A stretch of 64,000 bases of DNA from Escherichia coli (GCF_013122565.1 NZ_CP053258.1); one strand, 5' to 3'. Numbered from the stretch's first letter, positions 54,618 to 58,415 are shown. Notes: generated by a model not told the origin, from the letters alone. A program made the numbers and translations.

Positions 54618-55658
54618 TCATTTATCGGAAGACGCCTGCCACAGATTCAGCTCGCCATCGGCGATATGCTGATCAATCTGCGCCAGCTCCTCGGTGCTAA
54701 ATGTCAGATTATTCAGCGCCTGCACGTTCTCCTCTAGTTGCTCCGCGCGGCTGGCACCAATCAATACCGACGTCACGCGATCATCTTTCAGCAACCAGCT
54801 TAACGCCATTTGCGCCATTGATTGTCCACGATGCTGTGCCATGTCATTCAATAATCGCAGGCTGTTGAGGTTGGCTTCGGTGAGCATTTTCGGCGTCAGG
54901 CCACGAACTTTATTCCCTTCACGATGCATCCGTGAATCTTGCGGAATGCCGTTGAGATATTTTCCGGTCAGCAATCCCTGAGCCAGAGGAGTAAAGGCAA
55001 TGCAGCCCACGCCGTTATTTTGCAGGGTATCCAGCAGGCCGCTTTTATCCACCCAGCGGTTCAGCAAATTGTACGAAGGTTGATGAATTAACAACGGAAT
55101 TTTCCACTCGCGCAGTAACTCGACCATTTTTTGCGTCCGCTCTGGCGAGTAAGAGGAGATCCCGACATAAAGCGCCTTACCGCTTTGTACCGCATGAGCC
55201 AGCGCAGAGGCGGTTTCTTCCATCGGCGTATTTTCATCAACGCGATGAGAGTAAAAGATATCGACATACTCAAGCCCCATACGCTTCAGGCTTTGGTCGA
55301 GGCTGGCGAGCAGGTATTTACGTGAACCGCCAGAGCCGTAAGGGCCGGGCCACATATCGTAGCCAGCCTTGGTAGAGATAATCAGTTCATCGCGATAAGC
55401 GGCAAAATCCTCCCGCAGCAGGCGACCAAAGTTCTCTTCTGCGCTTCCTGGAGGCGGCCCGTAATTGTTGGCTAAATCAAAGTGCGTAATGCCTAAATCA
55501 AACGCTTTACGCAGGATCGCACGCTGTGATTCCAGCGCGTTAACGTGACCGAAATTGTGCCATAAACCGAGCGATAACGCGGGCAGGCGTAAACCGCTTT
55601 TTCCGCAATAACGGTACTGCATCTGCCCGTAACGCTCGGGATTCGCTAACCAGACCAT
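54618..55658 (-). CDS. gpr: L-glyceraldehyde 3-phosphate reductase (aldo-keto reductase)
   Basis: 346-aa ORF (MVWLANPERYGQMQYRYCGKSGLRLPALSLG...). Confidence 0.9.
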   Translation of the reverse strand: MVWLANPERYGQMQYRYCGKSGLRLPALSLGLWHNFGHVNALESQRAILRKAFDLGITHFDLANNYGPPPGSAEENFGRLLREDFAAYRDELIISTKAGYDMWPGPYGSGGSRKYLLASLDQSLKRMGLEYVDIFYSHRVDENTPMEETASALAHAVQSGKALYVGISSYSPERTQKMVELLREWKIPLLIHQPSYNLLNRWVDKSGLLDTLQNNGVGCIAFTPLAQGLLTGKYLNGIPQDSRMHREGNKVRGLTPKMLTEANLNSLRLLNDMAQHRGQSMAQMALSWLLKDDRVTSVLIGASRAEQLEENVQALNNLTFSTEELAQIDQHIADGELNLWQASSDK

Positions 55659-55811
55659 GACCTCTCCTTTCCACCATTCAATTTCGAAACAATGTTTCTA
55701 GTTTAGCGATTCATCAGTGCGTATCCCGTAGTCTGGCTCACAGAGTGACGAAAAACTGGGCAAAAACACGTGCTTATGCTTTGCTTAAAAAAACACCAAG
55801 TGAGGAGTGCA

Positions 55812-56702
55812 ATGATGCCGCGTTTAACCGCCAAAGATTTCCCACAAGAGTTGCTGGATTACTACGACTATTACGCTCACGGGAAAATCTCGAAACGTGA
55901 GTTCCTCAACCTTGCGGCGAAGTATGCGGTAGGCGGGATGACGGCATTAGCGTTGTTTGATTTGCTCAAGCCAAATTATGCGCTGGCGACTCAGGTAGAG
56001 TTTACCGACCCGGAAATTGTTGCTGAGTACATCACGTATCCTTCGCCAAATGGTCACGGCGAGGTGCGGGGTTATCTGGTGAAGCCCGCAAAGATGAGCG
56101 GCAAAACGCCAGCCGTAGTGGTGGTGCATGAGAATCGTGGACTGAATCCGTATATCGAAGATGTGGCACGGCGAGTGGCGAAGGCGGGGTATATCGCCCT
56201 GGCACCTGACGGCTTAAGTTCCGTTGGAGGTTATCCGGGAAATGATGATAAAGGTCGTGAGCTGCAACAGCAGGTTGATCCAACCAAACTGATGAATGAT
56301 TTCTTTGCCGCAATTGAGTTTATGCAACGCTATCCGCAAGCGACAGGCAAAGTGGGTATTACTGGATTTTGCTATGGCGGTGGCGTATCGAACGCGGCGG
56401 CTGTCGCGTATCCGGAACTGGCCTGCGCGGTGCCGTTTTATGGTCGACAGGCACCCACCGCCGATGTGGCGAAGATTGAAGCGCCTTTACTGCTCCACTA
56501 CGCGGAACTGGACACCCGAATCAACGAGGGCTGGCCCGCTTACGAGGCGGCGTTGAAAGCCAATAATAAGGTTTATGAGGCGTATATCTATCCGGGGGTT
56601 AATCACGGATTCCATAATGATTCCACGCCCCGTTATGACAAATCTGCCGCCGATCTTGCCTGGCAAAGAACGCAGAAATGGTTCGATAAATATCTCTCCT
56701 GA
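55812..56702 (+). CDS. yghX: Dienelactone hydrolase-family protein, apparently intact
   Basis: ORF 55770-56702; start placed at MMPRLTAKDF with GAGGAG ribosome-binding site; uninterrupted 296-aa frame. Confidence 0.75.
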   Translation: MMPRLTAKDFPQELLDYYDYYAHGKISKREFLNLAAKYAVGGMTALALFDLLKPNYALATQVEFTDPEIVAEYITYPSPNGHGEVRGYLVKPAKMSGKTPAVVVVHENRGLNPYIEDVARRVAKAGYIALAPDGLSSVGGYPGNDDKGRELQQQVDPTKLMNDFFAAIEFMQRYPQATGKVGITGFCYGGGVSNAAAVAYPELACAVPFYGRQAPTADVAKIEAPLLLHYAELDTRINEGWPAYEAALKANNKVYEAYIYPGVNHGFHNDSTPRYDKSAADLAWQRTQKWFDKYLS

Positions 56703-56820
56703 TAGGTTTATCTCTTACGGGATTACGTCTTAAACAAGCATGAAAAAATAGCGTGCGCAAAAGTCGTTCTTTGCCTAAAATATCGCTATATATAACAATA
56801 TATAGCGAATGAGGTGAACG

Positions 56821-57108
56821 ATGAATAACCATTTTGGTAAAGGCTTAATGGCGGGATTAAAAGCAACGCATGCCGACAGTGCGGTTAATGTGACTAAATA
56901 CTGTGCCGATTATAAACGCGGTTTTGTATTAGGCTACTCACACCGGATGTACGAAAAGACCGGAGATCGCCAGCTTAGCGCCTGGGAAGCGGGTATTCTG
57001 ACGCGCCGCTATGGACTGGATAAAGAGATGGTAATGGATTTCTTTCGTGAGAATAATTCCTGTTCTACGTTGCGCTTTTTTATGGCCGGTTATCGCCTCG
57101 AAAATTGA
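56821..57108 (+). CDS. yghW: DUF2623-family protein YghW
   Basis: 95-aa ORF upstream of the hyb operon. Confidence 0.8.
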
Positions 57109-57296: not shown

Positions 57297-58415
57297 ATGA
57301 CTGGAGATAACACCCTCATCCATTCTCACGGCATTAACCGTCGTGATTTCATGAAGCTTTGTGCAGCATTAGCCGCCACCATGGGGTTAAGTAGCAAAGC
57401 CGCTGCAGAGATGGCCGAATCGGTTACTAACCCGCAGCGTCCGCCAGTTATCTGGATTGGCGCGCAGGAGTGCACCGGTTGTACGGAATCTCTGCTTCGT
57501 GCAACGCATCCAACGGTAGAAAACCTCGTGCTGGAGACTATCTCTCTGGAATATCACGAAGTGCTTTCCGCCGCCTTCGGTCATCAGGTCGAAGAGAACA
57601 AACATAACGCTCTTGAGAAGTACAAAGGGCAGTATGTGTTAGTGGTGGATGGTTCCATCCCATTAAAAGATAATGGGATTTATTGCATGGTCGCCGGTGA
57701 GCCGATTGTGGATCACATCCGCAAAGCGGCGGAAGGCGCAGCAGCGATTATCGCTATCGGTTCCTGCTCTGCGTGGGGCGGTGTTGCCGCAGCTGGAGTT
57801 AACCCGACTGGCGCAGTCAGCCTGCAAGAAGTTCTGCCAGGCAAAACCGTTATCAACATTCCGGGCTGCCCGCCGAACCCGCACAACTTCCTCGCGACCG
57901 TTGCGCACATCATCACTTACGGCAAGCCGCCGAAACTGGATGACAAAAACCGTCCGACCTTCGCCTATGGCCGTCTGATTCACGAACACTGCGAACGTCG
58001 CCCGCACTTCGATGCTGGTCGTTTTGCCAAAGAGTTCGGTGATGAAGGCCACCGCGAAGGCTGGTGCCTGTACCACCTCGGCTGTAAAGGGCCAGAAACT
58101 TACGGCAACTGCTCAACGCTGCAATTCTGCGATGTTGGCGGTGTGTGGCCGGTGGCGATTGGTCACCCGTGCTATGGCTGTAACGAAGAAGGTATCGGCT
58201 TCCATAAAGGCATCCATCAGCTTGCCAACGTCGAAAATCAGACTCCGCGTTCACAGAAACCGGACGTTAATGCTAAAGAAGGCGGCAACGTCTCGGCAGG
58301 CGCTATTGGTTTGCTCGGCGGTGTGGTTGGGCTGGTTGCCGGTGTCAGCGTGATGGCGGTGCGTGAACTGGGTCGTCAGCAAAAGAAAGATAACGCTGAC
58401 TCACGGGGAGAATAA
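57297..58415 (+). CDS. hybO: Hydrogenase-2 small subunit (Tat signal)
   Basis: 372-aa ORF; twin-arginine motif RRDFMK; Fe-S cysteine clusters. Confidence 0.95.

Follow-up and report, generated by a model that had tools for sequence, protein, structure and literature searches.

Does the reading frame between gpr and yghW in this stretch of Escherichia coli DNA encode a complete YghX hydrolase, where K-12 carries a frameshifted pseudogene, and is an intact frame peculiar to this strain or the usual state of the gene? The window analysed here is a single stretch of 64,000 nucleotides, and the features that define the yghX locus within it are listed below; the names gpr, yghW and hybO are taken from homologous annotated RefSeq loci.

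54618..55658, minus strand: gpr, 346 aa, upstream neighbour of yghX
55802..55807, plus strand: Shine-Dalgarno sequence GAGGAG, 4 nt before the ATG at 55812 and 7 nt before the ATG at 55815
55815..56702, plus strand: yghX coding sequence, 295 aa plus TGA; an alternative in-frame ATG at 55812 gives 296 aa
56821..57108, plus strand: yghW, 95 aa, downstream neighbour of yghX
57297, following yghW: start of hybO

The plus-strand frame is uninterrupted from a GTG at 55770 to the TGA stop codon at 56700-56702 (55770..56702, 310 aa), and two adjacent ATG codons, 55812-55814 and 55815-55817, lie in the same frame. The unbroken frame of 296-310 aa reported in the preliminary description is thus borne out, its length being 310, 296 or 295 aa according to the start codon and its end lying at 56702 in each case; the strong ribosome-binding site reported with it is read at 55802-55807, and the reported position between gpr and yghW agrees with the annotated homologous loci. 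The order gpr-yghX-yghW-hyb in our ORF map of the window is the same as in the RefSeq annotation of K-12, ATCC 8739, CFSAN018748 and ST131, and alignment shows that both the GAGGAG sequence and the region upstream of yghX are conserved among K-12, ATCC 8739 and CFSAN018748. The two start codons read ATGATG (55812-55817) here and in CFSAN018748, and ACGATG in K-12 and ATCC 8739, which leaves the second ATG as the one common to all. We take 55815 as the better start, because RefSeq/PGAP begins yghX at the second ATG in other strains (888-nt CDS), the first codon is ACG in K-12, and the K-12 small protein YqhI, to which we return below, begins MPRL. Translation would then initiate at the ATG at 55815, 7 nt past GAGGAG, and the use of this codon in K-12 is shown by the detection of YqhI. 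Minus-strand and out-of-frame ORFs of 52-93 aa inside yghX were dismissed as by-products of the coding region.

Two further observations concern the surroundings of the gene. A perfect palindrome with 11-bp arms, TCGCTATATAT-AACA-ATATATAGCGA, occupies 56783-56808, directly 5' of the Shine-Dalgarno sequence of yghW (start 56821). K-12, CFSAN018748 and ST131 share both arms without change, and variation is confined to the base that opens the 4-nt spacer, A in the window (AACA) and G in K-12 and ST131 (GACA). The palindrome may serve as an operator or form an RNA hairpin. The 19 kb between 45000 and 64000, from metC/yqhD to the hyb operon, are at most 98.6% identical to any of the 5,426 complete RefSeq E. 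coli genomes, and the source strain accordingly comes from a lineage or mosaic with few representatives among complete RefSeq E. coli; for the 1.3-kb yghX region the nucleotide identity to any of these genomes is at most 98.9%.

The encoded protein agrees with the YghX family and the DLH (dienelactone hydrolase) family in all of the sequence and fold comparisons made. It matches the NCBIfam profile NF041440 ('YghX family hydrolase') with 585 bits against a curated cut-off of 460 bits (E=2.3e-176, profile positions 1-292 of 292), and residues 85-295 match the Pfam DLH profile (PF01738) with 162.9 bits against a gathering score of 21 bits (E=1.1e-47, profile positions 1-217 of 217); a chance ORF is ruled out by these two E-values. 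Residues 2-37 match the Pfam family 'YqhI-like' (PF23678). The exact protein is on record as WP_171460693.1/QJU27965.1 from E. coli, where it is rare and found on 3 contigs. Residues 59-294 are 97-98% identical to PDB entry 4ZV9, the YghX of E. coli O157:H7 Sakai ('EcoDLH'), whose crystal structure predates this analysis. An AlphaFold2 (AF2) model of the window protein, with a mean pLDDT of 96 and a pTM of 0.92, superimposes on 4ZV9 with an rmsd of 1.0 Å and a TM score of 0.98, and Foldseek comparison of this model with the dienelactone hydrolase ClcD (PDB 1DIN) gave E=9.6e-17 and a TM score of 0.83 (normalised to the target). Taken as a whole, these results are best explained by an intact yghX at 55815-56702, which very probably encodes a full-length, 295-aa precursor of a YghX-family hydrolase.

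The preliminary description had given yghX as a frameshifted pseudogene in K-12. This is correct, since the K-12 gene has suffered a 2-bp and a 1-bp deletion, and the annotation agrees ('frameshifted' in BW2952 by RefSeq/PGAP; pseudogene b4658 in MG1655). Alignment of the window to the K-12 region, the check proposed at the time, places the two frameshifts as follows, together with the K-12 gene that overlaps the first of them.

55923..55924, plus strand: TA of codon 37 (TAT), missing from both K-12 and ATCC 8739; first lesion by alignment
56284, plus strand: one C of CCAACCAAAC, deleted in K-12 and retained in ATCC 8739; second lesion by alignment
55815-55925 in the window, 3147597-3147740 in K-12 MG1655: yqhI, 5' remnant of yghX

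ATCC 8739 thus carries the first lesion only. In K-12 the gene is split into three ORFs of 47, 141 and 136 aa, of which the first reads MPRLTAKDFPQELLDYYDYYAHGKISKREFLNLAAK followed by CGRRDDGISVV, the second holds residues 38-157 and the third residues 160-295.

The 47-aa ORF is already known under another name. YqhI (b4755, 47 aa), which begins MPRL, was detected in K-12 by epitope tagging (PMC6001520), and a second study reports a ribosome profiling signal, induction under low Mg2+ by RNA-seq, and a yqhI deletion phenotype that is not complemented by the YqhI protein (PMC11429745). Its sequence is identical to the first K-12 yghX fragment, namely residues 1-36 followed by 11 out-of-frame residues, and in the MG1655 annotation yqhI is listed apart from the yghX pseudogene, with which it overlaps. 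It is therefore essentially established that YqhI arises from the pseudogene as a by-product, a frameshifted remnant of the N-terminal signal region, and is not a dedicated small-protein gene; the passages of PMC6001520 and PMC11429745 consulted do not state this origin. The 2-bp deletion in codon 37, which falls inside the predicted signal peptide, would end translation after 47 aa and so give rise to YqhI, and a later 1-bp deletion would account for the second K-12 lesion. Detection of YqhI also means that the promoter, Shine-Dalgarno sequence and start codon of yghX are active in K-12.

The spread of these lesions was followed in 5,426 complete E. coli genomes with short probes that seed megablast on one allele only. 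The K-12-type TA deletion was found in 1251 of the 5426 (23%) and the K-12-type C deletion in 1198, and the ungapped TA site was matched in 3490 with a 55-nt probe on which deletion alleles cannot seed. About 684 genomes matched neither TA-site probe, owing to nearby SNPs; these are probably SNP-rich lineages such as B2. Both ST131, taken as a representative of the divergent yghX alleles, and CFSAN018748 have yghX annotated as intact. A 40-nt probe over the TA site, matched by 843 genomes, had been replaced, as nearby SNPs blocked megablast seeding. An even sample of 39 records from the whole ranking included 11 of the K-12-type length, one with an independent +1 frameshift and one with an in-frame +3 change. 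The +1 frameshift is that of E. coli IAL7252, where yghX is annotated as a pseudogene, and it could be an assembly error; the in-frame +3 allele is that of E. coli 0H26 and is annotated as intact. The counts of 1251 and 1198, together with ATCC 8739, which has the TA deletion only, fit successive deletions in K-12, in which TA would have been lost first and C later from an already dead gene.

Outside E. coli, YghX homologues of 294-299 aa with 85-92% identity occur under the source names Citrobacter, Pseudescherichia, Enterobacter, Kosakonia and Leclercia, and full-length relatives reach down to about 35% identity. The outgroup Enterobacteriaceae share neither of the K-12 deletions. As the outgroups are full-length and most E. 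coli are intact, the intact frame is both the ancestral and the majority state. The suggestion that this strain may retain the functional ancestral allele is therefore supported, in that the frame is common to the outgroups. The intact gene is not special to the strain, being the majority state in E. coli, and the word 'functional' needs a caveat on account of a substitution, L287Q, that we discuss below. Comparison of the window allele with that of ST131 gave 39 synonymous and 5 non-synonymous differences, a dN/dS of 0.034, and the intact alleles are subject to purifying selection.

Conservation of the active site was assessed in an alignment of 31 diverse full-length YghX homologues, with ClcD as the reference for residue equivalence.

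56130..56132, plus strand: GAG, Glu106, equivalent to Glu36 of ClcD (HMMER alignment, ClcD variant 4U2C); E in 25 of 31 homologues
56370..56372, plus strand: TGC, Cys186, nucleophile in G-F-C-Y-G-G, equivalent to Cys123 of ClcD; C in 29 of 31 homologues
56511..56513, plus strand: GAC, Asp233, equivalent to Asp171 of ClcD; D in all 31 homologues
56604..56606, plus strand: CAC, His264, equivalent to His202 of ClcD; H in 29 of 31 homologues

By this alignment Cys186, Asp233 and His264 are the canonical dienelactone hydrolase triad, in line with the Cys-His-Asp triad described for 4ZV9/EcoDLH in PMC8533429 and in a recent preprint (bioRxiv 10.1101/2025.10.30.685675). The preliminary description had named a Ser-Asp-His triad, the lack of which was to count against the gene; that expectation was mis-specified. 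A serine nucleophile is rejected, as the motif reads G-F-C-Y-G-G and the nucleophile is a cysteine, and the triad itself is complete. By analogy with its family, YghX would work as a Cys-His-Asp alpha/beta hydrolase of the DLH type, and its mature domain (about 237 aa, with the 4ZV9 fold) would hydrolyse an ester, a lactone or a thioester by way of an acyl-cysteine. That the family is named after dienelactone does not imply that YghX turns it over. This compound is an unlikely natural substrate, because YghX lies outside any chlorocatechol cluster, its neighbours being gpr, yghW and hyb; the literature searched contained no enzymology of YghX on dienelactone, and no localisation, activity or substrate data for it other than a negative paraoxon assay. 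The preprint that compared a panel of DLH proteins reports EcoDLH to be without phosphotriesterase (paraoxonase) activity (bioRxiv 10.1101/2025.10.30.685675). The genomic context of one distant homologue, which has SusC-like and glycosidase neighbours, showed no conserved partner and gave no clue to the substrate.

The N-terminus poses a separate problem, as the 4ZV9 construct omits residues 1-58, beginning at residue 59/60, and the segment upstream of the hydrolase domain has the appearance of an export signal.

55815..55988, plus strand: predicted Tat-type (twin-arginine-type) signal peptide, residues 1-58, from alignment and residue counts
55890..55907, plus strand: SKREFL, codons 26-31, twin-arginine-like motif in which Lys replaces the first Arg

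Within residues 1-58 the n-region has D18, Y20 and H22; S26-K27-R28-E29-F30-L31 comes next, then an h-region of weak hydrophobicity, a c-region with K52, and lastly A56-L57-A58. The h-region consists of 12 uncharged residues, Y37 to F48, flanked by K36 and D49, with A56-L57-A58 beyond them. Of the 31 homologues, 25 have R and 5 have K at position 27, and R28 (29/31) and F30 (28/31) are strongly kept; in the n-region the counts are 22/31 for D18 and 26/31 for both Y20 and H22, and at the putative cleavage site 19/31 for A56 and 24/31 for A58. The consensus of these sequences is L-Y-D-x-Y-x-H-x4-R-R-x-F-L, followed by a Gly/Ala-rich stretch and L-x-P-x-x-A-x-A-x-Q-V. A wider survey of 184 aligned YghX sequences of 280-315 aa separated the distant homologues that bear the motif, with R-R in 34 of 37, A-x-A in 33 of 37 and an uncharged stretch of 11-27 residues (at least 15 in 26 of 37), from the enterobacterial representatives, which have K-R and A-x-A in 134 of 134 and 12-15 uncharged residues in all but one. 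Judged by sequence, many of the distant homologues carry textbook Tat signal peptides, and the prevalence of R-R among them (34 of 37) indicates that the family was ancestrally R-R and that the enterobacterial clade has a K-R variant. The window protein itself, with S-K-R-E-F-L-N, lacks the R-R of a strict Tat motif, and it matched neither TIGR01409 nor Pfam TAT_signal (PF10518); two distant homologues score 16.4 and 15.8 against the TIGR01409 cut-off of 16.7, and NCBI gives one homologous fragment the name 'twin-arginine translocation signal domain-containing protein'. Lysine is tolerated at the position of the first arginine in Tat signals. Some 600 bp downstream of yghX, the start of hybO (57297-57410) encodes a canonical Tat signal, which offers a contrast to the K-R of YghX within the window.

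We think that the YghX family is on balance probably exported by the Tat pathway and cleaved after A-x-A, here A56-L57-A58. Residues 1-58 would act as a twin-arginine-type signal, K-R-x-F-L in the enterobacteria and R-R-x-F-L in the distant relatives; YghX would fold in the cytoplasm, be exported by Tat and be cleaved after A56-L57-A58. The chief alternative, which we regard as possible though doubtful, is that YghX is not exported at all and that residues 1-58 form an uncleaved three-helix module ('YqhI-like') packed on the hydrolase, so that the protein is cytoplasmic or membrane-associated and the Tat resemblance of the enterobacterial sequences is vestigial. Structure prediction speaks for such a module: the AF2 model, with its high pTM, has a pLDDT of at least 90 over residues 1-60 (55815-55994), with helices at 11-21, 27-37 and 44-51, and this confidence, atypical of a cleaved signal peptide, would fit an ordered N-terminal module. 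So does the n-region motif D18/Y20/H22, which the alignments place as conserved down to about 35% identity, apparently well beyond what targeting would need, as do the invariant K-R of the enterobacterial representatives and the charged K36 and D49 that bound the h-region. Against it stand the distant homologues, whose R-R-x-F-L, 15-27 uncharged residues and A-x-A are those of textbook Tat signals, the tolerance of Tat signals for lysine at the first position, K52 in the c-region and the conserved A-x-A, which are signal-peptide features, and the fact that the catalytic domain crystallised without residues 1-58. A search with a profile of the N-terminal 62 residues found only DLH proteins or short fragments among the best 120 of 511 matches; the restriction to DLH proteins in these matches can be counted in favour of a module, and the search as such is compatible with a signal peptide as well as with a domain.

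The conservation of L-Y-D-x-Y-x-H in the n-region and the AF2 prediction of order over the whole segment also led us to consider a speculative and rather improbable combination, in which the N-terminus docks on the folded hydrolase before export, as an intramolecular inhibitor or a proofreading handle, such that the enzyme would be inactive, or its cysteine protected, until Tat export and cleavage.

An intact frame is not proof of full activity, because the window allele carries a private substitution at a conserved hydrophobic position.

56673..56675, plus strand: CAG (Gln), codon 287, private L287Q through T to A at 56674, in the C-terminal helix

Position 287 lies within the C-terminal helix of the AF2 model (276-294). 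Among 183 homologues none has Q there, and 171 have L, I, V or M; the codon is CTG in the three DNA comparators, the residue is Leu in the seven full-length (295-aa) cluster members compared, and L or V stands at the equivalent position of the PDB homologues 4ZV9 (Leu), 3F67, 9BLD, RIB26 and ClcD. A polar residue at this conserved and probably buried site might destabilise the fold and leave the allele impaired within an intact frame, a cryptic pseudogene in the making; the rarity of the exact protein, noted above, would agree with this. We consider such an impairment unlikely, as proteins often tolerate one exchange in a terminal helix, the rest of yghX shows a pattern of purifying selection, and the triad and Glu106 are intact.

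It is, finally, highly improbable that the frame is intact yet silent in the window strain, with no phenotypic consequence: a consensus scan of 55550-56950 for promoters and terminators did find no sigma-70-like site on the plus strand upstream of yghX, and nothing exceeding shuffle expectation, but the upstream region and Shine-Dalgarno sequence are conserved, the dN/dS of 0.03 implies expression and selection, and the same 5' region drives YqhI translation in K-12 (epitope tagging, ribosome profiling and low-Mg2+ RNA-seq).

The intact yghX found here is the ordinary and usual state of the gene in E. coli and was already known. As first stated the observation is of little importance, since the pseudogene status of K-12 yghX, the intact annotation in other strains and the 4ZV9 structure are all on record; metabolic engineering even uses the pseudogene as a neutral site for integration (PMC7677707). 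What the present analysis adds are the exact K-12 lesions and their frequencies, the cysteine nucleophile, a probable Tat signal, the origin of YqhI and the caveat of L287Q. That YqhI is a by-product of a pseudogene bears on the reading of YqhI null phenotypes. If YghX is indeed exported, our results suggest that a periplasmic cysteine hydrolase delivered by Tat would be missing from models of the E. coli periplasm that are based on K-12.

Comparison with known systems sets the protein in context. With Tat signal peptides the N-terminus of YghX shares a long n-region, a basic pair followed by x-F-L, a weak h-region, a basic residue in the c-region and A-x-A; it differs from them in the enterobacterial Lys in place of the first Arg, in the conserved D-x-Y-x-H of the n-region and in a segment that AF2 predicts to be ordered. 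ClcD of Pseudomonas knackmussii (PDB 1DIN; carboxymethylenebutenolidase, EC 3.1.1.45) has the same alpha/beta-hydrolase fold, and its Cys-Asp-His triad and Glu36 all align with their YghX equivalents, whereas overall identity is about 25% and ClcD, with 236 aa, has no counterpart of YghX residues 1-58. The K-12 locus, composed of the yghX pseudogene (b4658) and yqhI (b4755), is about 98% identical to the window in DNA sequence and has the same Shine-Dalgarno sequence and the same start codon, and it differs in the missing TA and C and in the ACG that replaces the first of the tandem ATG codons. EcoDLH (4ZV9) is the product of the same gene at the same locus, with the same PGAP length of 295 aa and the same Cys-Asp-His triad, and the window protein differs from it by a few substitutions, the private L287Q among them.
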